From a virus, in the IMG/VR virus record IMGVR_UViG_3300025096_003663, positions 1 through 64,000 of that record: DNA of 64,000 bases; one strand, given 5' to 3'. Under the pieces are notes generated by a model. It had not been told where the DNA came from and made no database searches. It worked only from the letters and a program-made list of their open reading frames with translations. Shown here piece after piece: positions 9,851 to 27,295 of the stretch (position 1 is its first letter; every line of letters begins with the position of its first letter). Made by a program: the position numbers and the translations under genes.

Positions 9851-9866
9851 GATCCACAGGATTTTT

Positions 9867-11195: not shown

Positions 11196-11204
11196 GAGAA
11201 AAAA

Positions 11205-11513
11205 ATGAAAAATAAAGAACAAACAGCAGAAGCCTTGGCTACTGATGAGAATACCAATGAATCAAAGATGGCTGTACAGCCATCAGAGGGACCACTCAAA
11301 CATATGTTGGTAGACTATGTTGGAAAAGTATACACTCCAGATAATGGAGAGGTTACGGTAGAGATGGTTATTGAAACACTCGCTTCCGAGTTTCCAGAGT
11401 TCCTTTATGTAGTAGCTAAGGAGAACTGGTTACGAGGATACCAACAAGCGATGACTGATGTAGATAACTATGACAGTAGCGAAGAAGCAGAAAAAGAGGC
11501 TCTTTCAAAATGA
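11205..11513 (+). CDS. hypothetical protein
   Basis: SD aggag; 102-aa acidic ORF. Confidence 0.75.
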   Translation: MKNKEQTAEALATDENTNESKMAVQPSEGPLKHMLVDYVGKVYTPDNGEVTVEMVIETLASEFPEFLYVVAKENWLRGYQQAMTDVDNYDSSEEAEKEALSK

Positions 11514-12205
11514 GCTTCTTACGGGAATCTAATGAAAGAATGAAGTCGGTACATTTTCTGTGGGAAAACAGAATAGATGTATATAATAAAAAAGATTTAC
11601 CCCCAGAAATAGAGATAGACTCAATATTACAAAAGATATCTTCTATTTTGCCGACATCTTTCTTGGATAATATAGATTCTGTATATGTCGGCGAATTCGA
11701 CTCCCTCAAAAAGAGGGAGGTCGATTCCGTCTATCAGGATGGGGCAATATACATCGTTCCATCCTATGTTTTCGGCAAAGAAGAGCTTCTCAGGAACATT
11801 GTCCACGAGGTTGCCCATGCTGTTGAAGAGCAGAATTCCCTTGAAATCTACGGGGATAGGGAACTTGAGGGTGAATTCGTGAAAAAAAGGATAAAACTAC
11901 TTGACAAGCTGAAGTCAATAGGTTATGATATACCATCTATAGAGTTATTTACAGATTCGGAATACTCTTCCGAGCTTGATAATTATTTTTATAAAGAAGT
12001 GGGATATCCATTGATGGCTCAACTAACAAGTAATATGTTTTCTTCACCATATGGAGCCACTTCTTTAAGAGAATATTTCGCCAACTCTTTTGAGGATTAT
12101 TTTTTGGGCAACATGAAAGATGTTAAAATTATTAGCCCAAAGGTATATGATAAAATTAACAAACTCGTAAAGAAATCGGAGGAAAAAACATATGGCAACT
12201 TTTAA
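11510..12205 (+). CDS. zincin-like metallopeptidase
   Basis: IVHEVAHAVE (HExxH) with a downstream REYFANSF carrying the third-ligand Glu. Confidence 0.7.
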   Translation: MSFLRESNERMKSVHFLWENRIDVYNKKDLPPEIEIDSILQKISSILPTSFLDNIDSVYVGEFDSLKKREVDSVYQDGAIYIVPSYVFGKEELLRNIVHEVAHAVEEQNSLEIYGDRELEGEFVKKRIKLLDKLKSIGYDIPSIELFTDSEYSSELDNYFYKEVGYPLMAQLTSNMFSSPYGATSLREYFANSFEDYFLGNMKDVKIISPKVYDKINKLVKKSEEKTYGNF

Positions 12206-12620
12206 TATAAAAACAGAGGGAAACATTATCAATGTTGAGGTGGAAGTTCCGGCTGCAGATCCAAAGCGCCTAAACAGAAACCCTTCATCCGTTGTGGTCG
12301 ATGATGTGCTGGATTATTTATCAGCTAACGGCATAGAGGTTGTTTCATGTCTAAAGCAACAAACGCTAACAAATCGAGGAAAGAACCCGAGACTCTCAGG
12401 AACTTTTAGCTTTCAAAAGAAAGAAAGCATTTCCGTGCATAAGGCGCCGAAGCCAAAGAAAGAAGAAGTGGTAGAAGATACTTCTGAAACCACGACTGAT
12501 GAGCAGACTGCCTACTCGGCAGAAACAGAAGAATCCAGCACTAAAGAGACTAAGAAGTCAAAGAAGAACAAAAAGAGAAAGAAAGTGTACAGTGAATATT
12601 CTCAACAACAAGAAGAATAA
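12192..12620 (+). CDS. hypothetical protein with a charged low-complexity tail
   Basis: SD ggagg; 142 aa; acidic then Lys-rich C-terminus. Confidence 0.7.
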   Translation: MATFNIKTEGNIINVEVEVPAADPKRLNRNPSSVVVDDVLDYLSANGIEVVSCLKQQTLTNRGKNPRLSGTFSFQKKESISVHKAPKPKKEEVVEDTSETTTDEQTAYSAETEESSTKETKKSKKNKKRKKVYSEYSQQQEE

Positions 12621-13428
12621 AAAAGAAAATCTCCATATAACTGAATATCTATCCTTTAGCGGCGTAAAAGACTGGGACTTTTGCCCTCACTACTATAAGC
12701 TTACTCGAATTGATAAGCTATATAAGTTTGAGGGAAACATCCATACCGCTTTTGGAAAGGCTGTCCATTCTTCTTTGGAGCTTCTGATATCTAAAAAGAA
12801 TCACAAGGATATAGAATATGTGGTCAAGGAAGTGGAGAGCCAATTTATTTCCATCTTCCATTCTGAAGCAGAAAGTGTTGGAGTAGACACCGAATCGAAA
12901 GACTTTAAAGATATGGTGAAACAAGGGGAGAGCCTCTTTCCTCATGTTATTCCGTTTATGAAGGCAAGGTTTGGTAATTATGAACTTGTTTCTATCGAAG
13001 AATCACTCGATGAGCCAATCGAGGGGCAAGAAGAAAGCGAGATTAAATACAAGGGCTTTGTGGATCTCGTCATAAAGACGAGCGATGGGAAATTTCATAT
13101 CATCGACTGGAAGACATGCTCTTGGGGATGGAATTGGCAAAAAAAGACAGATCCAATGACAACATATCAGTTGACCTATTATAAAAACTTTTTTGCAAAA
13201 AAATACGGTATCGACTTAAAAAAAATAGAGACATACTTTATACTCTTGAAGAGAACAGCCAAGAAAAATATTGTTGAAGCTATTAGGGTTTCGAGCGGTC
13301 AGAAGAAGACGGGCAATGCCCTCAAGCTACTGAACACCGCGATTCACAATATTGAGAACGGCAACCATATCAAGAAAAAAACATCTTGCCGTAGTTGCTC
13401 TCTTTGGCGAAACCTTTGCGAGGGATAA
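12592..13428 (+). CDS. PD-(D/E)XK exonuclease, Cas4/AddB-like with four Cys
   Basis: LSFS...CP, FGKAVH, GFVDLV, IIDWKT, QLTYY and C-terminal CRSC...C. GTG 12592 is the likely start. Confidence 0.85.
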   Translation: MNILNNKKNKKENLHITEYLSFSGVKDWDFCPHYYKLTRIDKLYKFEGNIHTAFGKAVHSSLELLISKKNHKDIEYVVKEVESQFISIFHSEAESVGVDTESKDFKDMVKQGESLFPHVIPFMKARFGNYELVSIEESLDEPIEGQEESEIKYKGFVDLVIKTSDGKFHIIDWKTCSWGWNWQKKTDPMTTYQLTYYKNFFAKKYGIDLKKIETYFILLKRTAKKNIVEAIRVSSGQKKTGNALKLLNTAIHNIENGNHIKKKTSCRSCSLWRNLCEG

Positions 13429-13429
13429 A

Positions 13430-14683
13430 TTGACAGACAAAAAAATCAAAATTCTAACAATAAGCGATCATCCATTTTCGCCATCTGGAGTAGGTACTCA
13501 AACTAGATACATCCTAGAGAAGCTCCTCCATACGGGCAAATATTCCGTAATCTCATTGGGCGGAGCAGTGAAGCATGAGCAATACAAACCCCAGAAAACA
13601 AAAGAGCATGGCGACGACTGGATAGTTCTTCCTGTTGACGGCTATGGAGATCAGAACCTTGTTAGGGCAGTTCTTAGAGATCACAAGCCAGACATGATAT
13701 GGTTTATGACAGATCCTAGGTTCTTTACCTGGCTCTGGGATATGGAAGACGAAATCAGATCAAAAGTGCCGATGATCTATTACCATGTGTGGGATAACAA
13801 GCCATATCCTTATTTTAATAAAAATTATTATGCTAGCACTGATGTAATATGTACAATATCTAAAGTTACAGACGATATTGTGAGAACCGTCTCGCCAGAT
13901 ACAGAATGCCATCGAATCCCCCATGTGGCAAATCCAGATGTCTTCAAGAAACTACCCAAAGATATCATAGAGAAATTTAAAAAACAATCAGGGCTTGATG
14001 ATAGATTTCTTGTCTTTTGGAATAGTAGAAATGCTCGTCGAAAGATGTCCGGAAGCTTGATTTGGTGGTTTAAAGATTTTCTAGATGAAGTTGGACATGA
14101 TAAAGCTCGATTGCTTATGCACACGGATCCTAAAGATAACCACGGGCAGGACTTAGAGAAGATAATTACAGAGCTCGGTCTTACTAATGGCGAAGTGATG
14201 TTTTCGACAAAGAAACTACCACCCCCAGAGTTGAATATTTTCTATAACGCGGCAGATGTTACTTGTGGGATATCGGATGCCGAAGGCTTCGGACTGTCCA
14301 CTTTTGAATCACTGGCAGCCGGTACACCTATCATTGTTTCTATGACGGGCGGGCTACAAGAGCAAGTTACCGATGGAGAAAAGTGGTTCGGAATAGGCAT
14401 TGAGCCGGCTTCTAAGGCGATTATAGGCTCTCAGGCTGTCCCATTCATCTATGAGGATAGGATAAGCCGAGAAGGCTTCATATCGGCTCTCAAAGAGATG
14501 TACAATAAAACCAACGAAGAGCGAGAAGAGCTTGGCGAACTAGGAAGAAAGCATTTGGAAGAAAATTATAATTTTGAGGAAACATTAGAGCAGTGGGATA
14601 CCCTATTGACGGATATCCACGAAAGATGTGGCTCTTGGGATACAAGAAAGAATTATAATAAATGGGAGATGTTAACCATATGA
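13430..14683 (+). CDS. GT4-family (GT-B) glycosyltransferase
   Basis: SDHP..PSGVG, RNARRK and EGFGLSTFE (Ex7E). TTG 13430 directly follows the upstream stop. Confidence 0.9.
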   Translation: MTDKKIKILTISDHPFSPSGVGTQTRYILEKLLHTGKYSVISLGGAVKHEQYKPQKTKEHGDDWIVLPVDGYGDQNLVRAVLRDHKPDMIWFMTDPRFFTWLWDMEDEIRSKVPMIYYHVWDNKPYPYFNKNYYASTDVICTISKVTDDIVRTVSPDTECHRIPHVANPDVFKKLPKDIIEKFKKQSGLDDRFLVFWNSRNARRKMSGSLIWWFKDFLDEVGHDKARLLMHTDPKDNHGQDLEKIITELGLTNGEVMFSTKKLPPPELNIFYNAADVTCGISDAEGFGLSTFESLAAGTPIIVSMTGGLQEQVTDGEKWFGIGIEPASKAIIGSQAVPFIYEDRISREGFISALKEMYNKTNEEREELGELGRKHLEENYNFEETLEQWDTLLTDIHERCGSWDTRKNYNKWEMLTI

Positions 14684-16644
14684 AAAAGAAAGTTTTAGTA
14701 ATTGGACCAGCGCTAACATCAAGCGGATACGGAGAACATGCCCGATTGATTCTTCGTGCCCTCAGAGCCCACGAGGAGCATTTCGATATTTACTTTGAAA
14801 ACATAAATTGGGGGCAGACCGGTCACACGATTGCTGACGATGAAGAGAGGAAATGGATTGATGGACTTGGCTTCAAGACAGCAGCGCTTAAGCAGAGTCA
14901 GGGCAATGTAGATATAACAATACAAGTAACAATCCCCAATGAGTGGAAGAAGCTTGCCCCTATTAATATTGGTGTCACAGCAGGTATAGAGACGACGAAG
15001 ATAGCCCCGCAATGGATTGAGAAGAGTATGGCTATGGACAAGATCATAGTTCCGTCTGAACACGCTAAATACGGGTTCGATAACACTCAATATGTGGCAA
15101 AGAACGACGAAACTGGCGAAGAAGGAGTTTTCAAAAACCAAACTCCCGTAGAAGTAGTCCATTATCCAGTCAAGGACACGAAGCCATCTAAGCTGAAGTT
15201 GGATTTAGATAGTGATTTTAATTTTCTTACAATAGCACAGTGGGGTCCAAGAAAGAACTTGGAGAATACAATAAAATGGTTTGTTGAAGAGTTTAAAGAT
15301 GAAGAAGTCGGATTAATAGTAAAAACCAGTAAAAGGCGAAATAATGTTGCAGACAGAAATAACTGTAAAGAGAGCATAGAAAAATTACTGGCTGGATATC
15401 AAGACAGGAAATGTAAGGTTCACCTTCTCCACGGCAACTTGACAGAAGAAGAAATGTCTGGATTATACACCCATCCAAAGGTAAAATCCATTGTTACAGC
15501 TACCCACGGAGAAGGCTTTGGGCTTCCTCTGTTTGAAGCAGTGTATAACGGTATACCTGTAATTGCTCCTAACTGGAGTGGGCATGTGGACTTTTTGTAT
15601 GCCGAGAAAAAAGATAAAAAAGGAAAGGTCAAGAGTAAAGCTCATTTTACAAAAGTTGATTATGATATAGCACCAGTTCAGCCCTCAGCGGTATGGAATG
15701 GTGTATTGCAGGCTGATAGTCAATGGTGTCACCCGAAAGCTGTTTCCTTTAAGGGAGCTCTTCGGGAGGTATATAAAAACTATGGACCTAAAAAGTCTGA
15801 AGCAAAGAAGTTAGCAAAACACATTATAGAAAAGTTTAACGAGAAAGACATCTATAAAAAAATTGCTACCATTGTTAATGGCGAAGAAATAATTGCCCTC
15901 GATAAATCTGAAATTCCAAAGATTTCTCTCTTGACTTCCGTATTCGATGGAGACGAGTATATAGAGCAATTTCTAGAGGATGTTACCAGACAGACAATCT
16001 TCGAAAGTAACTGTGAATTAGTATTGGTAAATCCAGCTTCACCCGGAAACGAGAAAAAGATTATAGATAAATATATCAAGAAGTTTCCTGATAATATCAA
16101 ATATTATGAGCTGGATGAAGATCCTGGGATTTATGGTACTTGGAATTATGCACTGGAAAAGGCAACAGGAGAGTTCATCACAAACGCAAATTTGGATGAT
16201 AGAAAGTCAGTCAACTCTATTGAAAAACATGCTACAGAACTCGTATTGAACTCTGATGTTGATTTAGTCTATGCCGACTCCCTAATCACCGACAAGCCAA
16301 ACGAGACATTTGAGCAGAATAGCTCATCCGGAAGAAAATATAGTTTTCCTGATTTCTCATTTGAAAATCTTAAAAAGATGAATATGCCCCATAACAATCC
16401 CATGTGGAGAAAATCTGCTCATGAGATAGCAGGCGTATTTGACTCTAAATATAAATCAGCCGGCGATTGGGAGATGTTCCTCCGAATGGCTTCAAAAGGA
16501 AGCGTGTTCAAAAAGATACACGAGACGCTTGGGCTTTACTACTTCAATCCGAAGGGGATGTCTACAAACCCAGATAACTTCGAATGGAAGCGAAAAGAGG
16601 AGCAAGAAATCTTTAACAAGTATAAGGATTCAACAGTTCCATGA
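14680..16644 (+). CDS. GT4-GT2 glycosyltransferase fusion
   Basis: N-terminal SGYG, PRKN and GEGFGLPLFEA; C-terminal ISLLTSVF, GIYGTWN, ANLDD and AGDWEMFLR. Confidence 0.9.
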   Translation: MKKKVLVIGPALTSSGYGEHARLILRALRAHEEHFDIYFENINWGQTGHTIADDEERKWIDGLGFKTAALKQSQGNVDITIQVTIPNEWKKLAPINIGVTAGIETTKIAPQWIEKSMAMDKIIVPSEHAKYGFDNTQYVAKNDETGEEGVFKNQTPVEVVHYPVKDTKPSKLKLDLDSDFNFLTIAQWGPRKNLENTIKWFVEEFKDEEVGLIVKTSKRRNNVADRNNCKESIEKLLAGYQDRKCKVHLLHGNLTEEEMSGLYTHPKVKSIVTATHGEGFGLPLFEAVYNGIPVIAPNWSGHVDFLYAEKKDKKGKVKSKAHFTKVDYDIAPVQPSAVWNGVLQADSQWCHPKAVSFKGALREVYKNYGPKKSEAKKLAKHIIEKFNEKDIYKKIATIVNGEEIIALDKSEIPKISLLTSVFDGDEYIEQFLEDVTRQTIFESNCELVLVNPASPGNEKKIIDKYIKKFPDNIKYYELDEDPGIYGTWNYALEKATGEFITNANLDDRKSVNSIEKHATELVLNSDVDLVYADSLITDKPNETFEQNSSSGRKYSFPDFSFENLKKMNMPHNNPMWRKSAHEIAGVFDSKYKSAGDWEMFLRMASKGSVFKKIHETLGLYYFNPKGMSTNPDNFEWKRKEEQEIFNKYKDSTVP

Positions 16645-17300
16645 AATTGATAGCTTTTTCTGTATGGGGCGTTGATTTAAAATACTTATCCGGCGCCATC
16701 AGGAATGCCGAACTAGCCCAATTAGTTTACCCTGATTGGGTTTGTAGGTTTTACGTCGATTCGTTGGTGCCATTTTTTGTAATTGACGAACTTTCTAAGC
16801 TTGAGAACGTGCAGATTGTGATGACGAATGAGCTTGGGGATTGGAAATCTTCTTTTTACCGATTTGGCGATATAGATGACGATGACGTGGAAGTTCTTAT
16901 TTCCAGAGATTCAGATTCCAGGCTAAGCATCAGAGAGAAGGCTGCTGTCGATCAGTGGCTATCTAGCGATAGCGGCTTCCATATTATGAAAGACCATCCA
17001 TGGCACTATACCCATCCTATATTGGCTGGCATGTGGGGAATAAAGTCGAACGTCGTACAGAATATGAAAAAAAAGATAGCAGGCTGGGACAAGACAAATA
17101 CTTATCACTCGGATCAAAATTTTCTTAGAGATATTATCTATCCTGAGATAAAAAATAATTGTCTAATACACGATGATTTCAAGGCTCAACCATTTCCTGC
17201 CCCTCGTGGCGACGTAGAATTTATTGGTCAAGTTTTTGATGAGAACGAAGAGACAGTGAGGGAACATCTTGATGCTTTAAGGGCGGTTTTAGGGAAATGA
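16641..17300 (+). CDS. putative GT-A-like glycosyltransferase
   Basis: DxD-like RDSDSR, ILAGMWG and DQNFL; located in the glycan locus. Confidence 0.5.
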   Translation: MKLIAFSVWGVDLKYLSGAIRNAELAQLVYPDWVCRFYVDSLVPFFVIDELSKLENVQIVMTNELGDWKSSFYRFGDIDDDDVEVLISRDSDSRLSIREKAAVDQWLSSDSGFHIMKDHPWHYTHPILAGMWGIKSNVVQNMKKKIAGWDKTNTYHSDQNFLRDIIYPEIKNNCLIHDDFKAQPFPAPRGDVEFIGQVFDENEETVREHLDALRAVLGK

Positions 17301-17995
17301 ACAAAATAGCCATTTATCATCATCTTGGTATGGGCGATGCAATAGAATGTAACGGCATGGTCCGCCATTTTGCTGAAAAATACGAAATCGTTGATATATT
17401 TGCTAAAGAGTCTTACCATGAGGCTTGTAGCTTCATGTATAGAGACGACGATAGAATAATCGTAAATAAAATTGATGGCAACAATGAGAAGGAAGAGGTC
17501 TCCAGATTCCTTAAGGATTATAAGGGAGAGATTATCATCCCAGGTCATCAAAACTATTTTAAAAACATACCATACTTTAAATCTCTAAGGTATGGTCCTG
17601 GAGAATCCTTCTATCACATTGCTAATGTTCCATGGCAATATAGGAATGAAAAGTTCCATATCGATAGGGACGAGAGTGAAGAGCAGAGGGTATTAAAGAA
17701 GCTAAATCCTTATGGGCAAAAGTTCTTCTTCGTTCACGATGATCCAAGCAGAGGGCATACTATAGATGTACAAAGCCCTTATATGATTTTAAAAAATGAT
17801 CCATCTGAAAGTTTCTTTAGTATGCTTGGTGTTCTGGAGGCTGCAGAAGAAGTACACTGTATGTCAAGTAGTTTTTTCTGTTTGTTGGACTGTATTGATA
17901 AAAAAATACAAGTCAAAAAAAAATTTCTACACAAATCAATAAGAAACGTAGATTTGGGTGATGATGGTATTGTTTCTGACTGGCTTGTTGTCTAA
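17297..17995 (+). CDS. putative glycosyltransferase-like protein
   Basis: The N-terminal HHLGMGD resembles the GT9/GT11-type GxGD loop; glycan locus context. Confidence 0.45.
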   Translation: MNKIAIYHHLGMGDAIECNGMVRHFAEKYEIVDIFAKESYHEACSFMYRDDDRIIVNKIDGNNEKEEVSRFLKDYKGEIIIPGHQNYFKNIPYFKSLRYGPGESFYHIANVPWQYRNEKFHIDRDESEEQRVLKKLNPYGQKFFFVHDDPSRGHTIDVQSPYMILKNDPSESFFSMLGVLEAAEEVHCMSSSFFCLLDCIDKKIQVKKKFLHKSIRNVDLGDDGIVSDWLVV

Positions 17996-18006
17996 TAGGG
18001 GCTCAA

Positions 18007-18693
18007 ATGTATGAAGCAAAGAAGTTAAATATCGCATTCTTATCGAGCGACAACTATTTTGGATTAGCTGGACTAAGGACTTTAGAACATAAAAATCTGA
18101 ACATTGTGTACAGGAATTTTGGAAAAAAAGAGTTAGAAATATCTCATTTAGATATTGATTATTTGATTTCATTCTGTTATCATAAAAAAGTCAGTAGCAA
18201 AAATCTGCTAGCTGCCAAGAAAGGGAATATAAATTTTCACCCGGCTCCATTACCTTCTTATAAGGGATTTTCTGTTTATAATTTTGGAATTTTGAACGAT
18301 GAAGAAGAATGGGGAACGACAGCTCATATGATGGAAGAAGAATTTGATTCGGGCCCTATTATAAAGACTAATTCTTTTCAAATTAGTAACGAAACTGCAT
18401 ATTCTCTAAGGGAGAAGAGTAGGCTTCACCTGCTAGAGTTACTAAACGAAGTTACAAACGACATTGTTGAAGGGAGAAAGTTTAAGCTAGTTGATAATGC
18501 AGGAGGCTCATATTATTCGAAAAAGATGATGAATGAGATGAGAATGATTAGTGCGAGTGATTCGGAAGAAACTATTGAAAAGAAGATAAGGGCTTTCTGG
18601 TGCCCGCCCCATGCCGGGGCAGTCGTTAGAATTAGAAACAGAGAATATACTCTGATAAACTCAGATATTATAAAAACTTTAGGAGACAAATAA
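18007..18693 (+). CDS. formyltransferase (probably sugar N-formyltransferase)
   Basis: INFHPAPLPSYKG, GTTAHMM..EFDSGPII and IRAF..P..GA. Confidence 0.85.
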   Translation: MYEAKKLNIAFLSSDNYFGLAGLRTLEHKNLNIVYRNFGKKELEISHLDIDYLISFCYHKKVSSKNLLAAKKGNINFHPAPLPSYKGFSVYNFGILNDEEEWGTTAHMMEEEFDSGPIIKTNSFQISNETAYSLREKSRLHLLELLNEVTNDIVEGRKFKLVDNAGGSYYSKKMMNEMRMISASDSEETIEKKIRAFWCPPHAGAVVRIRNREYTLINSDIIKTLGDK

Positions 18694-18694
18694 A

Positions 18695-19003
18695 ATGGCA
18701 GATACTTTAGGTGGATTAGTTGATAAACTTGTCACTATTGACATGAAGATGTGGAATAACCAAGAATTTCTATATGAGGTAAGGAGATTAACTTTCGATG
18801 AATTCGAAGCAAAGCACACAGATTCCAGACAGAAAAGAAAGGATCTTTTTGAGTCGATCAAAAAGTGTTGTGACTTGAATGTACAGAGAAATCAATTGAT
18901 TGATGAAATAGACGAAAAAATTGTTGAGATGCTTAAGGCTCTCCTGAAAGGAAGCGAATTGGACGACGGCAAGTTTATTCAGAGAAAACATAAAACATAC
19001 TGA
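18695..19003 (+). CDS. DUF4254-like helical protein
   Basis: LVDKL..I..K.W and LNVQRNQLIDEIDE patterns. Confidence 0.55.
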   Translation: MADTLGGLVDKLVTIDMKMWNNQEFLYEVRRLTFDEFEAKHTDSRQKRKDLFESIKKCCDLNVQRNQLIDEIDEKIVEMLKALLKGSELDDGKFIQRKHKTY

Positions 19004-19011
19004 GGCAAGTT

Positions 19012-19710
19012 ATGATACACGGTAATGAAAATTTATTATTTGGAGAACTCTATAAGCAGCTACCTAATGGCGGTCGCTTTATCGAGATAGGGAGTAGAGA
19101 CGGAAAAGATCATTGTTTTCGTCTGGCAACCAAGGATGGTTGGACAGGCTTTTGTGTGGAGGCAAACCCAGAAATTGCAAATTATTCTTTAAAAAAAACA
19201 TATGAAAACCTACCAGAGGTAAGAACATTCAACTATGCTGTCATGGCAACAAAAGGTAGCGTTGATTTCTATATTGAGGCAACTGAGAATAGCGGAGTAT
19301 CCAGTATCTTTAAAAACAGAGCATCTGGTCAAGATTCGGGGATTAGAAGAGCGATTTCCAAAACTGTTTCCGTTCCATCGATTTCGCTGTATGATTTTTG
19401 GTTATCAGTAAAAAAACCGCCTGTAGATCTACTAATGATTGATACAGAAGGATGTGATGCTGAAATTATTATGTCAACTGATTTTTCCGATTTTAAGCCA
19501 GAATTTATAATGGCGGAAACAACATTTATGTATTATTACTTGGAGCCGCATCTAAAATCAAACAATATAAAAGTTTGGGATATGATCAATGAACATCTTT
19601 CATCTTATGGATATGAACTGATATTACAGAATAACGATATAAATTACAAAAGACAATTCTGCCCAGAATTGATTGATACACCAATGAACGCAGGATGGAG
19701 GAGAATGTAG
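19012..19710 (+). CDS. FkbM-family methyltransferase
   Basis: FIEIGSRDG, VEANP and LLMIDTEGCD. Confidence 0.88.
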   Translation: MIHGNENLLFGELYKQLPNGGRFIEIGSRDGKDHCFRLATKDGWTGFCVEANPEIANYSLKKTYENLPEVRTFNYAVMATKGSVDFYIEATENSGVSSIFKNRASGQDSGIRRAISKTVSVPSISLYDFWLSVKKPPVDLLMIDTEGCDAEIIMSTDFSDFKPEFIMAETTFMYYYLEPHLKSNNIKVWDMINEHLSSYGYELILQNNDINYKRQFCPELIDTPMNAGWRRM

Positions 19711-19712
19711 AA

Positions 19713-20948
19713 ATGAGAATACCTAGAGCATGTATAGTGAGAGAGTGTGGGTACGTTGTCTTGGACGACGAGAATAAGAAAGCATACAGAGTATTGAACA
19801 AGCCATCATACGATATAGTGACATCTGAGATGTTCAAAGAGCGAGAGGGATTGTTTTGGCCAAGAATAATGGAGAAGAATGTCTCTTCTGACGATGGCTT
19901 GATAAAGAGCGACGAAAAGTTTAAGACGGTAGAAGTTGAGTATCTAGAGCATGTTGTCTATTGGACTGAAATGTCCTTTTTCGACATCAAACAATCATTA
20001 TTGTTTCTGTGTGATATTTCTAAGTATTTAGCGGAAAGCAATGTTCATATGGTTTCTCACCTGTGGAATATCAGTCTAAGCAAGGGAAAGCCCTTTTTGA
20101 TAGACTTGGGAGATTTCAGAAGAGGATCCAATTTGCTGGCGATTTATGAAACTATAGTCTCTACATTGTCGGAAAAAACAAGCCATCACATACCAGAAGG
20201 GTATCAGCCATCTAAGTGGATGAATAACCATGACTACATTCTTTACGAGCTAGAGAAAATAAGGCATGGCATCGGCTTAGAGATAAAAGATGTAAATATT
20301 CTCATAGACAAAACAAGAGATGTCGTATCGAAAATTGACATAAAGCAGAAACATATTCGTTGGGACACATACCCTACACAGAGAGACATGCCCGACACAT
20401 TGGAGGGATTGACTGCTTACGCTCCGAGAAATAGACCAAACCTGTGTAAAGTGCTGGAGAGTAAAAAGCCCGAAACACTGCTAGATTTGGGATGTTCTTA
20501 CGGGCTGTATAGCTTTTACGCTTCATCCTTTGGTACTAAGACAGTTGGTTTAGATTATAGTCATGAGATGATTTCATCAGCGAATAAAAAAGCTGACTTC
20601 CTTGATACAGATTGTAGTTTCGGCTTCATTGATTTACTTAATGTGAAAGAGTGGGGCTTAAACGGGGTATATGAATCTTTCGGAAAAAGACTCAAATCAG
20701 AAGCAGTCATAGCCCCAGCCCTACTACACCATGTTCATGGACGAGGCACCTCGGTGGAGGATATCATTCGAGAGTGGATGTCTTGTGCCGAAAAGTGGAT
20801 TATGGTGGAGCATATACCAAACGATACAACTGGTCAGATAATCTCAGCCGACAAGATTGTAGAGACATTCAAAGAAGGCGGGTTTAAGAATATATCTGTT
20901 CTAGACTCCAAGCCTCTTCCAAGGAAATGGATTTTGGCAGAAAGATGA
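19713..20948 (+). CDS. kinase-like N-terminal domain fused to a class I SAM methyltransferase
   Basis: N-terminal HLWNI...PFLIDLGDF; C-terminal LLDLGCSYG, GLDYS and ALLHH. SD ggaggag precedes ATG 19713. Confidence 0.7.
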   Translation: MRIPRACIVRECGYVVLDDENKKAYRVLNKPSYDIVTSEMFKEREGLFWPRIMEKNVSSDDGLIKSDEKFKTVEVEYLEHVVYWTEMSFFDIKQSLLFLCDISKYLAESNVHMVSHLWNISLSKGKPFLIDLGDFRRGSNLLAIYETIVSTLSEKTSHHIPEGYQPSKWMNNHDYILYELEKIRHGIGLEIKDVNILIDKTRDVVSKIDIKQKHIRWDTYPTQRDMPDTLEGLTAYAPRNRPNLCKVLESKKPETLLDLGCSYGLYSFYASSFGTKTVGLDYSHEMISSANKKADFLDTDCSFGFIDLLNVKEWGLNGVYESFGKRLKSEAVIAPALLHHVHGRGTSVEDIIREWMSCAEKWIMVEHIPNDTTGQIISADKIVETFKEGGFKNISVLDSKPLPRKWILAER

Positions 20949-22057
20949 TACCAATCTACAAGCCGTACCTTCCAAGCAATTCTTTAAGATATGCCCATGA
21001 AGCGATTGATTCAACTTGGATCTCTTCTTCTGGGAAATTTTTAGAAAAAGCAACAGAACTACTATCAGAATATCTTGGCACCAGCTATGTTCAGCTAGTA
21101 AATAACGGGACGAGTGCAACACATCTTGTCTCAAAGGCACTAGTGTATAAACATCCAAATGTTAATAAGATCATTTTACCAAACAATGTTTATGTTGCTG
21201 CTTGGAATTCTTTTCTTTATGATAAGGAGTTCGATATTGCCCTGAGCGAGCCGAACTTATCAACATGGAATATTGATCTGGAAAGTTGCCCCCCTCTAGA
21301 TGCTGATGTGGCAGTCTGCTTTGTCCACAATCTTGGGAATATAGTGAATGTTCCCAAGTTTATGAGAGAAAATCCAGGAGTTGTCTGTGTCGAAGACAAC
21401 TGTGAAGGTCTTTCTGGCGAGTACGAAGGTAACAAATCTGGCACAAAATCTCTTGCCTCTTCCCTATCTTTTTTTGGGAACAAGACAATCACATCTGGCG
21501 AGGGCGGAGCCGTTGTGGTTGCTGACGAAGATACTTACGAATATTTGAAATGTATACAAGGTCAGGGTCAAAGCAAAGAAAGGTATGTACACAGCCATCT
21601 TGGTTACAATTATAGGATGACCAATGTTCAAGCTGCAATACTAGCAGGTCAGCTAGAAATAATATCAGAGATATTGGAAATGAAATCGGGACTTTTCAAT
21701 TTTTACAGAGAAGGTCTGTCTTCTGTCGATGGAGTTTCCCTTCAAAGGCAAGAGGAGGGCACGGCTCACTCTAATTGGATGTTTTCTGTCAGAATTCACG
21801 GCTCAAGCGGGTACGAAGATTCTTCCAGATTTTTATGCGAAAGAGGCATAGAGACTAGACCAATGTTTTACCCGTCTTCGAAGCACGACCACATTAAGGC
21901 TTCTAGTCTTGTGGCGAAGGGCACTGAGACTAATGCTGAGATTCTAAATAGGGAATGTATCATACTTCCTTCTTTTCCAGAGTTAAGTAAGAAAGAGCTG
22001 GATCACATCGTTGAGTCAATTAAATCTTTGGCAATAAAAGTACAAAGCCAGAGGTAG
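20945..22057 (+). CDS. DegT/DnrJ aminotransferase, GDP-perosamine synthase-like
   Basis: MIPIYKP, WISSSG, NGTSA, VEDNCE, SFFGNKTITSGEGG (PLP Lys), GYNYRMTN and GIETRPMF. Confidence 0.9.
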   Translation: MIPIYKPYLPSNSLRYAHEAIDSTWISSSGKFLEKATELLSEYLGTSYVQLVNNGTSATHLVSKALVYKHPNVNKIILPNNVYVAAWNSFLYDKEFDIALSEPNLSTWNIDLESCPPLDADVAVCFVHNLGNIVNVPKFMRENPGVVCVEDNCEGLSGEYEGNKSGTKSLASSLSFFGNKTITSGEGGAVVVADEDTYEYLKCIQGQGQSKERYVHSHLGYNYRMTNVQAAILAGQLEIISEILEMKSGLFNFYREGLSSVDGVSLQRQEEGTAHSNWMFSVRIHGSSGYEDSSRFLCERGIETRPMFYPSSKHDHIKASSLVAKGTETNAEILNRECIILPSFPELSKKELDHIVESIKSLAIKVQSQR

Positions 22058-22060
22058 TTC

Positions 22061-22996
22061 ATGAAGTATAAGAAAATTTTAATTACTGGCGGAACTGGGA
22101 TGGTGGGCACTGCTCTTAGGAAGACTCTTCCCAACATGGTCTTCCACTCTTCCAAAGATTTTGATCTTAGAGATCCCTCAGAAGCCAAAAGGATGATGGA
22201 TAAGCATAGTCCAAATGCCGTGATCCATTTGGCTGCCAAAGTTGGAGGAGTAAAGGGCAACACTGATTATGTTGCCGACTACTACTCGGACAATATCCTC
22301 ATAAATACAAACGTGTTAAATGCTTCTCACTTATTCGGAGTAAAGAAGGCTGTCTCTCTATTATCAACATGTATATATCCAGATAAAGTCAGATATCCGA
22401 TTACAGAAGAGCAACTTCACGAAGGGGAGCCTCATTTTTCTAATTTTGGCTATGCTTATTCCAAGAGAATGATCGAGATACAGAGTAGAGCTTACAGACA
22501 GCAATATGGTTCCAACTTTATATGTGCTGTGCCGAATAATTTGTACGGAGGGCACGACAATTTTGATCTTAATAACAGCCATGTTGTACCTGCCTTGGTT
22601 CGTAAGATTTGGGAAGCAAAACTGTCAAACAACTCGTCTGTTGAAGTGTGGGGCAACGGAACTCCAGTTAGAGAGTTCACATATTCGAAAGACATAGCAG
22701 AGATACTTCTTTTCTTGCTCGACAATTACGACGATAAAGAGCCGATAAACATTGGGAATACAGAAGAGCACTCAATAGCAGATGTGGCGAAGCTTATTTG
22801 TAAGCAGTTGGATTACAGTGGAGAAATAGTCTGGAATACAGATATGCCATCTGGACAACATAGGAAGCCAAGCGACAACACGAAACTGATTGACTTGGGC
22901 TGGGATAAGAATAGATACACTCCCCTAAAAGAGGGCTTAAAAAACACCTGTGATTGGTTTATAATGAACTATCCAAATGTAAGGGGTGTTAAGTGA
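22061..22996 (+). CDS. fcl: GDP-L-fucose synthase
   Basis: GGTGMVG, HLAAKVGG, STCIYP (Cys), YAYSK, PNNLYG and SHVVPAL (His). Confidence 0.92.
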   Translation: MKYKKILITGGTGMVGTALRKTLPNMVFHSSKDFDLRDPSEAKRMMDKHSPNAVIHLAAKVGGVKGNTDYVADYYSDNILINTNVLNASHLFGVKKAVSLLSTCIYPDKVRYPITEEQLHEGEPHFSNFGYAYSKRMIEIQSRAYRQQYGSNFICAVPNNLYGGHDNFDLNNSHVVPALVRKIWEAKLSNNSSVEVWGNGTPVREFTYSKDIAEILLFLLDNYDDKEPINIGNTEEHSIADVAKLICKQLDYSGEIVWNTDMPSGQHRKPSDNTKLIDLGWDKNRYTPLKEGLKNTCDWFIMNYPNVRGVK

Positions 22997-24012
22997 AAAC
23001 GGCGATTATAACGGGAGTTACTGGACAGGACGGCTCCTACTTAGCAGAACTGCTCTTATCTAAGGGTTACAGAGTGATCGGCTTAAAAAGAAGAACCTCC
23101 TTGATAAATACGGCAAGGATAGACCATATCTTTTCCCACGAAAACCTAATCCTGGAATATTACGATCTTGAGGATTCGGGCTGTATCTACAAACTAATAA
23201 ATAAATACGAGCCCGACGAGATTTACAACCTTGCTGCACAGTCTCATGTAAGAGTGTCTTTTGATATGCCTGAGCACACAGTTAGCGGAGTGGCTATTGG
23301 ACCTCTTAAGATTCTTGAGGCGATAAGAAATATGAATCTCTGTGATAAGATAAAGTTTTATCAAGCTTCGTCATCAGAGATGTACGGTGATAATCCAGAC
23401 TACCCTTTTAACGAAACCTCAAGGCTTATGCCGGCTTCTCCTTATGCCTGTGCTAAAGTGTTCGCCCACAACATTGTCAGGAATTACAGAGAGTCCTATG
23501 GCATCCATGCCTCTAGTGGAATTCTGTTTAATCACGAATCACCTCGGCGAGGAGAAACCTTTGTTACTCGAAAGATAACCTTGGCAGCAGCCCGGATAAA
23601 GCTTGGACTACAAGATCAGCTATGTCTAGGAAACCTGGATGCTAAACGAGACTGGGGTCATGCTAAAGATTATGTCCTGGCAATGTGGAAAATGTTACAA
23701 AAAGAATCTCCGTCTGATTATGTCATCTCTACTGGGGAGACTCATTCAGTCAAAGAGTTCTTGGAGGAAGTTTTCGATTGTGCTGGGCTTGACCCATATA
23801 AATATCTAAAAATAGATGCTAGACTGTTTAGACCACACGAAGTGCCTTATCTGCTAGGTGATAGTACAAAGGCTCGAAAGGAACTTTCTTGGACACCAGA
23901 GCATAGCTTTAAGACACTAGCAAAAGATATGTATGAAGCCGATTACGAACAGGTGATCAGCTCTGAGGGACGATACGGGCATATCGAAAAAGCGCTGAGA
24001 GAGACAATTTGA
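22993..24012 (+). CDS. gmd: GDP-mannose 4,6-dehydratase
   Basis: ITGVTGQDGSYLAE, NLAAQSHV, QASSSE, SPYACAK, FNHESPRRGETFVTRKI and RDWGHA. Confidence 0.97.
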   Translation: MKTAIITGVTGQDGSYLAELLLSKGYRVIGLKRRTSLINTARIDHIFSHENLILEYYDLEDSGCIYKLINKYEPDEIYNLAAQSHVRVSFDMPEHTVSGVAIGPLKILEAIRNMNLCDKIKFYQASSSEMYGDNPDYPFNETSRLMPASPYACAKVFAHNIVRNYRESYGIHASSGILFNHESPRRGETFVTRKITLAAARIKLGLQDQLCLGNLDAKRDWGHAKDYVLAMWKMLQKESPSDYVISTGETHSVKEFLEEVFDCAGLDPYKYLKIDARLFRPHEVPYLLGDSTKARKELSWTPEHSFKTLAKDMYEADYEQVISSEGRYGHIEKALRETI

Positions 24013-24014
24013 CG

Positions 24015-24371
24015 ATGACAGAAAAGAACGAAATAGACCATCGCCCATGGGGAATGTATGAAGTTTTGTATTCCGGCGATATCTGCAAAGTAAAGAGGAT
24101 AGTCGTCAACCCAAGGCAGCGACTAAGCTTACAGTCACACTCTCAGAGAAGAGAGACCTGGATTATAGTACAAGGAGCAGCCCTCTATCAAAAGGGCGAG
24201 TTTGGACTGGGCTCCGCGACGGCAGGAGATCATATCATAATAGAGAAAAATGAAAAGCACAGGATAGAAAACTGTGGTAAAGAAGAACTGATTTTTATAG
24301 AAGTTCAGACCGGTGAATATTTTGGCGAAGACGATATTGTTCGCTATGAAGATTCTTATGGTAGGACTTAA
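24015..24371 (+). CDS. mannose-6-phosphate isomerase type II C-terminal cupin
   Basis: RPWG, KVKRIVV, LSLQSH..R.E.W, HRIEN and EVQTGEYFGEDDIVRYED. Confidence 0.9.
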   Translation: MTEKNEIDHRPWGMYEVLYSGDICKVKRIVVNPRQRLSLQSHSQRRETWIIVQGAALYQKGEFGLGSATAGDHIIIEKNEKHRIENCGKEELIFIEVQTGEYFGEDDIVRYEDSYGRT

Positions 24372-24384
24372 GGAGGAAACTAAG

Positions 24385-24558
24385 ATGAAACTTTCAGATC
24401 AAGCAGTTGGTGCCCTGATGATGGCACTCCAAAAATGTCTAATGGAACAAACAGATATTGTCCCACTGTTGGGCGAGATGGATTTTACACCAGACGATGT
24501 AGGGAACTTAATTGTAGAGAACCCACCTAAGTTTGAGGTGCCCACAAAAAATGCCTAG
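24385..24558 (+). CDS. small hypothetical protein
   Basis: Strong SD aaggagg before ATG 24385 (MKLSDQAVGALMMALQK). Confidence 0.7.
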   Translation: MKLSDQAVGALMMALQKCLMEQTDIVPLLGEMDFTPDDVGNLIVENPPKFEVPTKNA

Positions 24559-24790
24559 ATATACCTATCAGTGTGAGGTATGTGATGAATACTTCGAAAT
24601 CACCCACGGGATGAAAGAACATCCAGAACCTTGTGAATGTGGGGAGATTTTGACGAAGATTCCATCCATGCCACTCGATATGAAGCTAAAAGAAGGCAAG
24701 AAGAAGGTCGGAGACACAGTGAATACTTATATAGAAGATTCCAGAGATGACCTCGTTCAGCAAAAGAAAGAGATGGAAAGTAAGAGATGA
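24551..24790 (+). CDS. FmdB-like zinc-ribbon protein
   Basis: MPRYTYQCEVC...CECG. Confidence 0.75.
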   Translation: MPRYTYQCEVCDEYFEITHGMKEHPEPCECGEILTKIPSMPLDMKLKEGKKKVGDTVNTYIEDSRDDLVQQKKEMESKR

Positions 24791-25104
24791 ATTATTTAGT
24801 AATAGCATTGGCATTGGTTATTATCTTTATGGCTTGGTTTTGTTATAGATTACTCCGGAATCTATACAACCTGTCGGAAGGTATTCACGATGTTGTCATT
24901 GAGATAGAAGGCTTCACAAAGCACCTCGAATCAATTTACGAAATGGAAATGTTTTATGGGGATGAGACACTAGATTCACTCCTCCGACACTCTAGAGCAC
25001 TGAAAGAAAACTTGGGCGAATTCACAAGAACAAATGCAGCAGAGCTGGAGGATAGGGAGGAAATAGATGAAGAAGAAGAGACTGACTCGGAAGAGACGGA
25101 ATAA
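24787..25104 (+). CDS. hypothetical protein with an N-terminal transmembrane helix
   Basis: YLVIALALVIIFMAWFCY followed by a coiled coil and an acidic tail. Confidence 0.7.
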   Translation: MNYLVIALALVIIFMAWFCYRLLRNLYNLSEGIHDVVIEIEGFTKHLESIYEMEMFYGDETLDSLLRHSRALKENLGEFTRTNAAELEDREEIDEEEETDSEETE

Positions 25105-25768
25105 GAAAGAGAAGAGAGATTATTTCACCGAAGTCCATCAAGAAGCGATTGTAAGATATGCTCAAACAACCGATCTTAAAGAACGAGATCAATTATATGA
25201 AAAACTGATAGGTCCAGCATTCAACGAAATGGTCGATAAGATCGTCTATACCTATAAGTTTACAAACTTAGCAAATATTGATGATCTAAAAGCCGAATGT
25301 AAAATTTGGCTTACAACGATTTTGAACAAGTTTGACCCAGAGAAGGGCTCGAAAGCTTTTAGCTATTTCAGTGTTATAACTAAGAATTGGTTTATACATA
25401 AAGTAAAGCATAATAGCATTCGGCTCAAAAGAGAGGTATACTTCGAAGAAGTTGCTGATCTGGACGAGATGAAAAATCTAGTAACTCACAACGACTACTA
25501 CGACCGACGAGAAAAGAAGGAGTTTTGGGATTCTTTAGGCAAGGAACTTGATGTGTGGGAAGGCGAAGCGGTGAAAGCAAATGAAAAAAGAGTCGTCGAG
25601 GCAATAAGAATTATACTTTCGGAGCCAGAAGACATAGAAATTTTCAATAAAAAAGCTATTTATTTATATCTCAGAGAGATAACAGGTCTAAACACAAAGC
25701 AGATTGTAAATAGTTTGAACAAAGTGAGAACGAAATACAAGCTGTTTAAGGAAGACTGGGACGTATAA
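25067..25768 (+). CDS. phage sigma factor, T4 gp55-like (region 2)
   Basis: IDDLKAEC...LNKFDPEKGSKAFSYFSVITKNWFI resembles sigma region 2.2-2.4; located at the head of the structural module. Confidence 0.7.
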   Translation: MKKKRLTRKRRNKKEKRDYFTEVHQEAIVRYAQTTDLKERDQLYEKLIGPAFNEMVDKIVYTYKFTNLANIDDLKAECKIWLTTILNKFDPEKGSKAFSYFSVITKNWFIHKVKHNSIRLKREVYFEEVADLDEMKNLVTHNDYYDRREKKEFWDSLGKELDVWEGEAVKANEKRVVEAIRIILSEPEDIEIFNKKAIYLYLREITGLNTKQIVNSLNKVRTKYKLFKEDWDV

Positions 25769-25769
25769 A

Positions 25770-26069
25770 ATGAAGAGTAAATTTGTTAGCCATCTCGAAC
25801 AAGCTATCGATAATATAAGAAATGATCGATCTATAGCATCAGAGCTTCTGGGCGATGTTTCAGAATATATTGGTCAAAACAAAGAGAGACACAAAGATGT
25901 CGGTCAAGTTGCCGCTAAATATCTGGAAACTCTTCAGAGATCCAACGAGCAGCTAGTCAAACTAACAGCCATGTTACAGAGGGCAGACGACGATGAATAC
26001 GGAGACTTGACGGAAGACGATAGAGATAAGCTGTTCGAATCGTTCGAGGAGGACGGATCGAATGGCTGA
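25770..26069 (+). CDS. hypothetical helical protein
   Basis: 99-aa ORF in a tightly coupled operon. Confidence 0.7.
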   Translation: MKSKFVSHLEQAIDNIRNDRSIASELLGDVSEYIGQNKERHKDVGQVAAKYLETLQRSNEQLVKLTAMLQRADDDEYGDLTEDDRDKLFESFEEDGSNG

Positions 26070-26655
26070 TAAAAAGAAATCAACAGTGAACACTGAAATA
26101 GAATGGGGAGTATTAAACCCCAGGCAAGATAGTGTTATTAAAGACAACTTTGAGAAGAATGATGTTCAGTGGTTATCATATATAACGAATAAGTTTGTTG
26201 ACTCAATCAACTCTGATGACGATTATATCAAGAAAGGTATTATAGAGAGGATTGAGCCCGACCCCGACCGACTCTTGCCGTCTGGAGTTTATCGATGTAA
26301 GGTCAGATGGGTAGAAGGTGACGGAATCAGCACTGTTGAGTCTATGTCGTCGGAACTAGAAACTACCTCCCATTCTCTAAATAATTTACGAAGAACATAC
26401 GAAGGAGAGCTTTCAAAGAAGCCCCAGATTGGGCAAGAATGTACAATCAAAGTACCGAAAACGAACTTGAGGCACATAGACGGTGAAATCTTAGAGCTAC
26501 ATAACAGATTTTGGTATACAACGGCAGGAGCCAGCAGGAAGCGAACCAAGCCAACATCTGCTAAGAATGCGAATCAGAATGGCGGGGCAACAGGAAATAA
26601 CGGCATTTCGACGAGTACAAGCGAAGATACTCAGACTGCTGAAGGGAGCTCTTAA
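26062..26655 (+). CDS. hypothetical protein, possible gp5/VgrG-type OB-fold
   Basis: KGIIERI...YRCKVR...PQIGQECTIK resembles spike OB-fold motifs; SD gagga. Confidence 0.45.
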   Translation: MADKKKSTVNTEIEWGVLNPRQDSVIKDNFEKNDVQWLSYITNKFVDSINSDDDYIKKGIIERIEPDPDRLLPSGVYRCKVRWVEGDGISTVESMSSELETTSHSLNNLRRTYEGELSKKPQIGQECTIKVPKTNLRHIDGEILELHNRFWYTTAGASRKRTKPTSAKNANQNGGATGNNGISTSTSEDTQTAEGSS

Positions 26656-26673
26656 TAAGAGAGAGGTGCCCAA

Positions 26674-27282: not shown

Positions 27283-27295
27283 GAGAGGACGAAAG

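Follow-up and report, generated by a model that had tools for sequence, protein, structure and literature searches.

A candidate exporter-free glycan-assembly island with a conserved glycosyltransferase pair and an exchangeable cassette in a marine myovirus fragment

The window analyzed here, 64,000 nucleotides representing positions 1 to 64,000 of the IMG/VR virus record IMGVR_UViG_3300025096_003663, contains at positions 13430–24371 an island of twelve genes, all on the plus strand, for glycosyltransferases (GTs), methyltransferases and enzymes of sugar-nucleotide synthesis. The best explanation for the island as a whole, which we hold tentatively and at slightly less than an even chance, is that it is a phage-encoded glycan-assembly locus operating without an exporter. 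Comparison with relatives indicates that the island is probably old and fixed in position, with its first two GT4 genes belonging to the core of the clade and an exchangeable cassette accompanying them. One part of this cassette, the formyl/methyl sub-cassette, is exchanged between strains that are about 98% identical in its flanks.

The window is the beginning of a linear virus record of 81,247 bp, whose completeness is about 45% according to CheckV and in which nearly all genes lie on the plus strand. Genes for a T4-type large terminase (TerL), a portal protein, a primase, an SbcC-like protein and a baseplate wedge protein were recognized in the record, which is a fragment of a marine myovirus; metagenome runs with near-identical DNA are of marine, seawater and sediment origin. 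Among cultured phages, Flavobacterium phage vB_FspM_immuto and Microcystis phage Mel-JY01 have the most similar TerL (43.7% and 42.4% identity, respectively), and the T4-like cyanophages rank next at about 34%; a megablast search with the locus gave no match among phage records. The island is part of one co-directional gene array that continues into baseplate and giant structural genes.

Both ends of the island are exact gene boundaries. The first gene starts with TTG at position 13430, preceded by GAGGG and 1 nt past the stop of a PD-(D/E)XK nuclease gene (12499–13428, plus strand; PF12705, 3e-15), which is the conserved left border, and the right end coincides with the stop of the last gene at 24371. 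Neighboring genes overlap by 4–22 nt or are separated by gaps of 1–11 nt. The gene list of the initial annotation, namely gmd, fcl, an aminotransferase, a formyltransferase, an isomerase cupin and two methyltransferases in one coupled operon, was borne out, and the number of GT domains, given there as three to five, is five. For comparison we used relatives of P2, one of the phage-specific GT genes of the island, which were found in 445 IMG/VR contigs; 80 of the loci were analyzed. Two larger related genomes, G001 (185.5 kb, 84% complete, holding locus L019) and the cyanophage G008 (211 kb, 100% complete), were used as well.

The two routes proposed in the initial annotation, from Gmd through a perosamine synthase (Per) and a formyltransferase and from Gmd through Fcl, are supported by family and PDB matches, and it is probable that the predicted enzymes synthesize GDP-L-fucose and GDP-N-formylperosamine. 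The 120-residue product of the last gene (24009–24371) is a stand-alone type II mannose-6-phosphate isomerase (PMI) cupin matched by PF01050 (3.9e-31, 108 bits) over profile positions 12–116 of 116; by homology it would convert fructose-6-phosphate to mannose-6-phosphate. Monofunctional viral isomerases of this type II cupin kind are described in the accessible part of PMC9602691. The GDP-mannose 4,6-dehydratase Gmd (22993–24012) matches PF16363 over its full length (3.5e-126; 421.6 bits against a cut-off of 27) and would produce GDP-4-keto-6-deoxymannose, from which two branches are predicted. In one of them the GDP-L-fucose synthase Fcl (22061–22996), whose 18 PDB matches are all GDP-L-fucose synthases (best 1e-85), would yield GDP-L-fucose. 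In the other, a pyridoxal-phosphate aminotransferase resembling GDP-perosamine synthase (20927–22057; PF01041, 6.5e-60, 203.7 bits) and the formyltransferase would yield GDP-4-formamido-4,6-dideoxymannose (N-formylperosamine). The best PDB match of the aminotransferase, a member of the DegT family, is perosamine synthetase 3bn1 (4.9e-45, residues 8–365), and the Lys of its FFGNK motif is aligned, which points to an aminotransferase and not to a ColD-type dehydratase. The NTP_transferase family, which would hold ManC, has no member in the record, and phosphomannomutase (ManB) was not searched; since ManC is absent, GDP-mannose must come from the host. The description of the locus as self-contained, made in the initial annotation, therefore holds downstream of GDP-mannose but not upstream of it.

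The formyltransferase gene (18007–18693; PF00551, 52 bits) encodes a WbkC-like sugar N-formyltransferase predicted to act on GDP-perosamine. With the single sequence, the GDP-4-amino-4,6-dideoxymannose formyltransferase (5vys, 5vyr, 5vyt) was found in PDB at 2e-19, and ArnA (5e-10) and Met-tRNA formyltransferase (2e-9) were weaker. A family profile built from 26 of 47 homologues and compared with solved structures only gave WbkC at 6e-32 (114 bits), Fmt at 9e-24 (88 bits) and ArnA at 5e-23. Residues N76, H78 and D114 are invariant in 26/26 family members and correspond to N, H and D in the alignment with 5vys; we take this Asn-x-His ... Asp set to be the catalytic residues of the Formyl_trans_N core.

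The initial annotation had considered that this enzyme might act on Met-tRNA or another non-sugar substrate. If it formylated Met-tRNA, a purine precursor or dPreQ1 in DNA (as DpdN does), no N-formylperosamine would be made. Such a function is suggested by the automated names of the homologues ("methionyl-tRNA formyltransferase"), by a PHROG match to a PurN-like family and by the related phage immuto, which has a formyltransferase acting on a DNA base. On the other hand, WbkC is ahead of the other solved matches by 8 orders of magnitude, and PF00551 stands alone, with no Fmt C-terminal domain, both in this protein and in 47/47 homologues. The enzyme gave no BLASTP alignment with immuto DpdN at E values up to 100, and tblastn with immuto FolE, QueD, QueE, QueF, DpdA and DpdN found nothing in the record, G001, G008 or the 80 loci. 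Moreover, in L005, L006 and L067 a GNAT acetyltransferase of 141–151 amino acids fills the slot of the formyltransferase between P2 and the gene for a 102-aa protein, and these loci also encode an orthologue of the perosamine synthase (E values from 1e-100 to 1e-110). The exchange of an N-formyl- for an N-acetyltransferase at one position is expected from a perosamine N-acylation step. A Per orthologue accompanies the formyltransferase in L003, L004 and L065, and in the window Gmd, the aminotransferase and the formyltransferase are all inside one coupled operon. A related-locus search seeded with the formyltransferase alone gave no relative. Taken together, the WbkC match, the GNAT replacement and the lack of similarity to DpdN disfavor a non-sugar substrate, which we consider very improbable.

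The five GT domains are those of a GT4 enzyme, of a GT4-GT2 fusion (two domains) and of P1 and P2, the last two representing phage-specific families. The first core GT (13430–14683) is a GT4 enzyme of the GT-B fold (PF00534, 5.6e-13; phrog_2170, 2e-26); its best solved match, at only 2e-7, is "Glycosyltransferase B736L", presumably a protein of PBCV-1. In the second (14662–16644), a GT4-like half covering approximately residues 1–400 (PF00534; phrog_2170 at residues 8–401) is fused to a GT2 half at residues 416–640 (PF00535, 3.4e-13, residues 424–587), which has a weak PHROG match to "GtrB-like" (4.6e-5). Weak matches of the GT4 domains to PF20706, "GT4 in conflict systems", were also found (8e-8 and 4.9e-5).

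P1 (16641–17300) and P2 (17297–17995) have no Pfam, NCBIfam or PHROG match, and their families are 91–100% viral in Atlas clusters. P1 is a GT-A-like glycosyltransferase with an R-D-x-D-x-R motif whose residues R89, D90, D92 and R94 do not vary among 28 sequences; its Atlas neighbors are viral clusters named "hexosyltransferase" or "putative glycosyltransferase", and its structure resembles the leading half of viral proteins that carry GT2. For P2, a compact GT-B-like protein, the AF2 model (pLDDT 95.5) has its best Foldseek matches in the GT9 entries 3tov, WaaC and WaaF, with E values between 4e-5 and 7e-4 and a TMq of at most 0.62; a weaker match is the protein heptosyltransferase TibC (8e-3). 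We treat this likeness to the GT9 fold as a lead. None of the 124 metagenomic members of the P2 family has a Pfam domain. In L010, L022 and L064, P1 and P2 are fused into a single open reading frame (ORF) of 462–467 amino acids.

The remaining three genes lie between the formyltransferase and the aminotransferase. The first encodes a conserved 102-aa protein (18695–19003) with a weak DUF4254 match below the cut-off; its gene directly follows that of the formyltransferase (L003, L065) or of GNAT (L005, L006, L067) in 5/5 loci examined. The second encodes an FkbM-family S-adenosylmethionine (SAM) methyltransferase (19012–19710; PF05050, 7e-16; TIGR01444, 49 bits, over the cut-off), which is a predicted sugar O-methyltransferase. 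The third, P3 (19695–20948; 417 amino acids), combines an N-terminal alpha/beta domain (residues 1–220) with a class I SAM methyltransferase (residues 250–417, with Pfam matches at residues 250–350). The AF2 model of P3 has a pLDDT of 91.5, its Foldseek matches are restricted to the methyltransferase half, and a profile of the N-terminal domain found nothing in PDB at E values up to 10. The loci L003, L004 and L065 contain both P3 and the formyltransferase. A kinase-like N-terminal domain, or a resemblance of P3 to the chain terminator WbdD, was also considered and dropped, its sole basis being a match to the WbdD methyltransferase domain at 2e-3.

Next we analyzed the distribution of the island genes. 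Among the 80 loci holding P2, P1 is present in 65, the DegT aminotransferase in 64, Fcl in 60 and Gmd in 57, followed by the GT4-GT2 fusion (22), PMI (12), GT4 (8), the 102-aa gene (8), the formyltransferase (4), P3 (3) and FkbM (2). Seven loci are syntenic with the window (L005, L006, L008, L010, L019, L022 and L064). On the left side, the order PhoH, two small genes, PD-(D/E)XK, GT4 and GT4-GT2, with a variable middle part next, is found in those loci that extend far enough (L005, L010, L019, L022 and L064); the PD-(D/E)XK orthologue immediately precedes the GT4 pair in L008, L010, L019, L022 and L064, and Gmd intervenes in L005. The conserved right border of the island (24313–25768, plus strand) consists of three small ORFs and a gene for a 233-aa protein, with homologues in L006, L008 and G001; in L006 and L008 the same small ORFs and the 233-aa gene lie on the right side. 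Two of the small ORFs (24313–24558 and 24787–25104, plus strand) have an N-terminal hydrophobic segment, with Kyte-Doolittle maxima of 1.84 and 2.41, and the right-border ORFs have no Pfam or PHROG match.

G001 is collinear with the record, 42 of 78 ORFs being common to both. Identity is 63% for TerL, 62% for Gmd, 61% for the portal protein, 60% for GT4 and 57% for GT4-GT2, falling to 39% for P2 and 26% for the aminotransferase; the G001 island, with 26 ORFs across 22 kb, otherwise differs from that of the window. In a Pfam census of the 89 island ORFs of five relatives (L005, L006, L008, L022 and G001), for which figures refer to the top 25 of 64 families, we counted twelve epimerases/dehydratases, nine DegT, three NeuB, and two each of CMP-sugar synthetase, GT29-like, UDP-sugar dehydrogenase and GNAT proteins. 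NeuB, CMP-sugar synthetase and a GT29-like sialyltransferase represent a nonulosonic-acid route in the islands of these relatives, and L005 additionally encodes a heptose-type pair made up of a SIS-domain protein and an NTP-transferase.

The left part of this arrangement extends to both cultured relatives. In immuto the PD-(D/E)XK gene (gp183) is kept and is followed by a GT4 pair and then by a different cassette; gp181 is 34% identical to GT4 (2e-68), and gp180 is 33% identical to the N-terminal half of the GT4-GT2 fusion (4e-59). In Mel-JY01 the same PD-(D/E)XK, GT4, GT4 order is followed only by GTs and a methyltransferase. The retention of this order in phages whose hosts belong to two phyla argues for a phage-borne acceptor of the glycan.

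Replacement at the level of strains was observed when public contigs were aligned to positions 9000–28999 of the window. One contig (X2) spans 17803–22620 at 98.2% identity and has the same cassette as the window. Two others, X3 (34,036 nt) and X5 (13,861 nt), are collinear with the window up to position 17934 (98.2% identity) and again from position 20945; between these points 4191 non-aligning nucleotides replace the 3011 nt of the window that make up the variable sub-cassette (17934–20945) with the formyltransferase, the 102-aa gene, FkbM and P3. Further downstream, the stretch 22220–27798 of this alignment is 94.4% identical. X3 and X5 come from two studies, possibly of one campaign. A further run, X6, has no cover over 18338–21005 and a joint, with a skip of 9140, that has 21 letters on its shorter side; it was not used.

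To look for exporters, we scored transmembrane (TM)-like segments by Kyte-Doolittle hydropathy (19 residues, threshold 1.6), which is a crude scan and not a family search. The maximum is at most 1.17 in all twelve island proteins, and every ORF of the 81 kb has at most one TM-like segment. No polyprenyl-phosphate initiating transferase of family PF02397 was found in the record or in 5/5 relatives; WecA-type PF00953 was not searched directly. Among the 89 island ORFs of the five relatives three have at least one TM-like segment, and across the 80 related loci one of 1859 ORFs has at least four. The multi-TM proteins of G001 are all small (up to 223 amino acids). In G008, which has P1, P2, the aminotransferase, Fcl, Gmd and PMI, the only ORFs with at least three TM-like segments are PsbA and PsbD (Photo_RC). 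Serotype conversion of the Gtr type, which involves the membrane proteins GtrA, GtrB and GtrC, was not matched, there being no membrane protein in the locus. Hydropathy and the PF02397 search thus agree with the initial annotation, which saw no TM segments, exporter or initiating enzyme, and extend this observation to the relatives and to G008. As to such genes elsewhere in the genome, which it had named as a possible refutation, none was found in the 81 kb by these scans, but the 81 kb are a record that is only about 45% complete.

These observations could be explained by glycosylation of the phage particle itself. Five soluble GT domains would assemble an oligosaccharide in the cytoplasm, and the FkbM enzyme and the second methyltransferase would methylate its sugars. 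The first two GT4 enzymes would lay a conserved inner part onto a conserved acceptor, and the downstream cassette (P1, P2, the N-acyl/methyl module and the sugar-nucleotide genes) would set a variable outer part that is exchanged between strains. With virion structural proteins as the acceptor, the result would be a variable "serotype" of the particle. Virion proteins are the likeliest of the candidate acceptors, although we would give them not quite an even chance. A more specific version, in which the GT4 pair primes a structural protein and a swappable cassette adds O-antigen-type sugars in the cytoplasm without lipid carrier or exporter, so that the island is a virion "serotype" locus of a large aquatic myovirus clade, is possible but rather doubtful. 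The sugars added would be N-formyl- or N-acetyl-perosamine, fucose and methylated sugars, with nonulosonic acids in relatives. In favor of a phage-borne acceptor are the conservation of the GT4 pair across phages of Bacteroidota and Cyanobacteria, the virus-specific P1 and P2, the lack of exporters despite very diverse sugars, and the continuity of the island with the structural gene array.

Several points weigh against virion glycosylation or against the pathway that would feed it. No RNA run is present among the public runs with near-identical DNA. Promoter and terminator scans carry no timing signal: the T4 late-promoter motif TATAAATA has 4 matches where 3.98 are expected, the sigma-70 scan gave 59 against 48.7 expected and the terminator scan 24 against 14.8, none of them informatively placed. 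No obvious capsid or tail acceptor emerged when all ORFs were scanned for Ser/Thr-rich tracts. Fcl is below the curated NCBIfam cut-off (NF047922, 278.7 bits against 500). The aminotransferase passes no NCBIfam equivalog, the best being the LegC family with 190 bits against a cut-off of 420, and its substrate specificity is therefore deduced from context. The N-terminal part of the formyltransferase is approximately 30 residues shorter than that of WbkC, its residue 47 aligning with residue 78 of 5vys. Genome coverage is also partial, about 45% for the record and 84% for the best relative, G001. G001 moreover encodes a PAP2-family membrane phosphatase that could touch lipid-carrier metabolism (155728–156399, or 3728–4399 of L092; 223 amino acids, 5 TM-like segments, PF14378, 2.7e-16), located far from the island.

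Nor can the acceptor be deduced from the absence of TM segments, because the GTs of O-antigen synthesis are generally peripheral: the GT4 and GT2 enzymes of these pathways are usually soluble or peripheral and use lipid-linked acceptors made by other genes. The step from missing TM segments to a cytoplasmic acceptor (virion proteins or DNA), taken in the initial annotation, is weak in itself, since host carriers and exporters are usable. The phage GTs could thus act on undecaprenyl-phosphate-linked intermediates of the host, whose initiating transferase, flippase or ABC exporter, and ligase would display an altered O-antigen or capsule; the hydropathy scans are compatible with such remodeling of the host envelope. 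Typical sugars of O-antigens and capsules include fucose, N-formylperosamine and nonulosonic acids, the G001 phosphatase is a further hint, and comparable cyanophage clusters are read as modifying the cell wall or host surface in the accessible text of PMC9602691 and PMC12801897. However, no exporter or initiating enzyme was found by hydropathy in the 80 loci (PF02397 being searched in five) or in the complete G008, so that swapped cassettes would need to fit the flippases and ligases of the host. In addition, the core GT4 pair is common to phages of Bacteroidota and Cyanobacteria hosts, and the P1 and P2 families are almost entirely viral. We regard envelope remodeling as a serious alternative, although less likely than not; its effect would be a block of superinfection or the keeping of progeny from adsorbing to debris.

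Phage DNA bases are another acceptor that would be reached in the cytoplasm. GT-A and GT-B enzymes of phages place mono- to trisaccharides on 5-hydroxymethylcytosine (5hmC), as reported in the accessible text of bioRxiv 10.1101/2023.12.21.572611, and the machinery of the island is likewise cytoplasmic. But the virion DNA of immuto consists of dA, dC and dT, with deoxyguanosine (dG) wholly replaced by 7-(formylamino)methyl-7-deazaguanine (fdPreQ1), and the accessible part of PMC10516641 reports no glycosylated nucleoside. For this reason a DNA acceptor is disfavored, and with it the DNA half of the cytoplasmic-acceptor proposal in the initial annotation. The thymidylate-synthase/hydroxymethylase family (PF00303) is absent from the 81 kb and from 5/5 module-bearing records, two of which are at least 94% complete, and a C5-methylase (PF00145) was not found; a PF12851 search was uninformative, its control giving no match either. 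Neither GDP nor fucose occurs in the accessible main text of bioRxiv 10.1101/2023.12.21.572611. Hypermodification of DNA by the island GTs is, in our estimate, extremely improbable. As a separate observation, immuto, in which the formyltransferase gene DpdN adjoins DpdA according to the annotation, pairs a complete replacement of dG by fdPreQ1 with a syntenic glycan island, and the lineage of the window has no deazaguanine genes in the available sequence.

The soluble, exporter-free machinery would also suit other cytoplasmic acceptors, such as a non-structural host or phage protein, a small molecule or a free oligosaccharide, the effect being for example the inactivation of a defence factor or the sequestration of GDP-mannose. 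The weak GT4 matches to the conflict-system family PF20706 are consistent with this. Nevertheless, five GT domains, two sugar-nucleotide branches and swapping between strains better fit an exposed glycan under selection, and no candidate target was identified, which makes this alternative improbable.

Virion glycosylation, as the preferred reading, can be set against known systems. The N-formylperosamine O-antigens of Brucella and Yersinia enterocolitica O:9 are made from GDP-mannose by the same three-enzyme route (Gmd, Per and WbkC). In contrast to them, the island is phage-encoded, lacks an initiating transferase and, by hydropathy, a Wzm/Wzt-type exporter, adds a GDP-fucose branch, two methyltransferases and phage-specific GTs, and has a shorter formyltransferase. 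In the mycobacteriophages of Freeman et al. 2023, which are said to be actinobacteriophage siphoviruses with few GT genes and no genes of sugar-nucleotide synthesis, soluble GTs reportedly modify capsid and tail-tube subunits in the cytoplasm without an exporter. The island differs from these in having five GT domains and two sugar-nucleotide branches, and its glycoprotein is putative. It shares with virus-encoded virion glycosylation of the mycobacteriophage and giant-virus type the combination of soluble GTs and no exporter. Among giant viruses, chlorovirus PBCV-1 has Gmd/GMER and capsid glycans, and Megavirinae have fibril glycans; virus-encoded GDP-fucose synthesis, cytoplasmic GTs, methylated or rare bacterial-type amino sugars and clade-specific clusters are known in this group. 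Their hosts, however, are eukaryotic, there is no detectable orthology with the island past common families, and the likeness would be a functional one. The alpha- and beta-GT of T4 and the 5hmC systems of the Pyle et al. preprint are cytoplasmic phage GTs of GT-A and GT-B type, as in the island; unlike in phage DNA glycosylation, the donors here would be GDP-sugars, an enzyme forming hydroxymethyl-pyrimidine was not found, and the DNA of a relative is unglycosylated.

The closest parallels in gene content are the T4-like cyanophages S-SCSM1, S-SCSM2R, P-SSM2 and S-SRM01, likewise lytic myoviruses with a monofunctional type II mannose-6-phosphate isomerase, Gmd, Fcl and many soluble GTs, as far as the accessible text of PMC9602691 and PMC12801897 goes; S-SRM01 also has a P2 homologue within its GT cluster. 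In the same portions of these papers no perosamine/formyltransferase branch is described, the lineage is a different one, and the island stands apart by its fixed position, its clade-core GT4 pair and its replacement between strains. Phage clusters with the isomerase, Gmd, Fcl and many GTs are thus already known (S-SCSM1 and relatives, PMC9602691, accessible part), and so are the islands of immuto and Mel-JY01, which are annotated in their records and have the same order of PD-(D/E)XK, GT4, GT4 and variable glycan genes. The immuto island differs in having two aminotransferases, a mannosyltransferase and an epimerase and in lacking Gmd, Fcl and the formyltransferase. A literature search, mostly of titles and abstracts, found no virus-encoded perosamine/formyltransferase branch, no core-plus-cassette architecture and no replacement at the strain level.

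Clusters of sugar-nucleotide and GT genes without exporters have been known in cyanophages since the first genomes. To these the present locus adds a complete-looking N-formylperosamine branch. Its fixed position, core GT4 pair and swappable cassette predict an exposed glycan under selection, and the synteny shared with two cultured relatives makes the question of the acceptor directly testable. If the virions are glycosylated, marine phage particles would carry variable glycan coats, with a bearing on adsorption, grazing, stickiness and recognition by host defences. If the serotype reading is true, the locus would correspond in phages to the O-antigen switching of bacteria and to the fibril glycosylation of giant viruses.

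Four giant ORFs, all on the plus strand, lie near the baseplate wedge gene: 28206–36143 (2645 amino acids), 39749–44245 (1498), 45284–52921 (2545) and 54035–58069 (1344). They are conserved in part in G001. A PHROG search of giant ORFs including those of 1498 and 1344 amino acids gave no match, the 2645- and 2545-aa ORFs not being searched. As candidate fibers or tail parts, these ORFs are candidate acceptors of the glycan.

Upstream of the island, a malate synthase gene (5552–7213, plus strand; PF01274, 322 bits, and PF20659) adjoins an isocitrate lyase gene (7223–8446, plus strand; PF00463, 331 bits), which together make a complete phage-borne glyoxylate shunt pair. The isocitrate lyase was considered as a tracer of the host and dropped, being 67–73% identical to bacterial enzymes from many phyla. 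A tRNA-Ile gene with the anticodon TAT (5459–5535, plus strand) lies immediately 5' of this pair. It is preceded by a gene for a cytidylyltransferase-like protein (4901–5413, plus strand; PF01467, 8.5e-14), 8 kb away from the island, which could function in the activation of sugar or polyol phosphates or in NAD metabolism. Between the shunt genes and the island, a 442-aa fusion of a PIN domain with PhoH (9867–11195, plus strand; PF13638 and PF02562) is 61% conserved in G001, and a short PhoH of approximately 245 amino acids is found in other lineages bearing the glycan module. A 231-aa protein (11510–12205, plus strand) is kept in five syntenic relatives and matches the ATLF metalloprotease-like domain family below the threshold (2e-4; 21.6 bits, the cut-off being 27.4). 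Of the few genes on the minus strand, one (8872–9795) encodes a trypsin-like peptidase (PF13365) whose N-terminus bears a hydrophobic segment.

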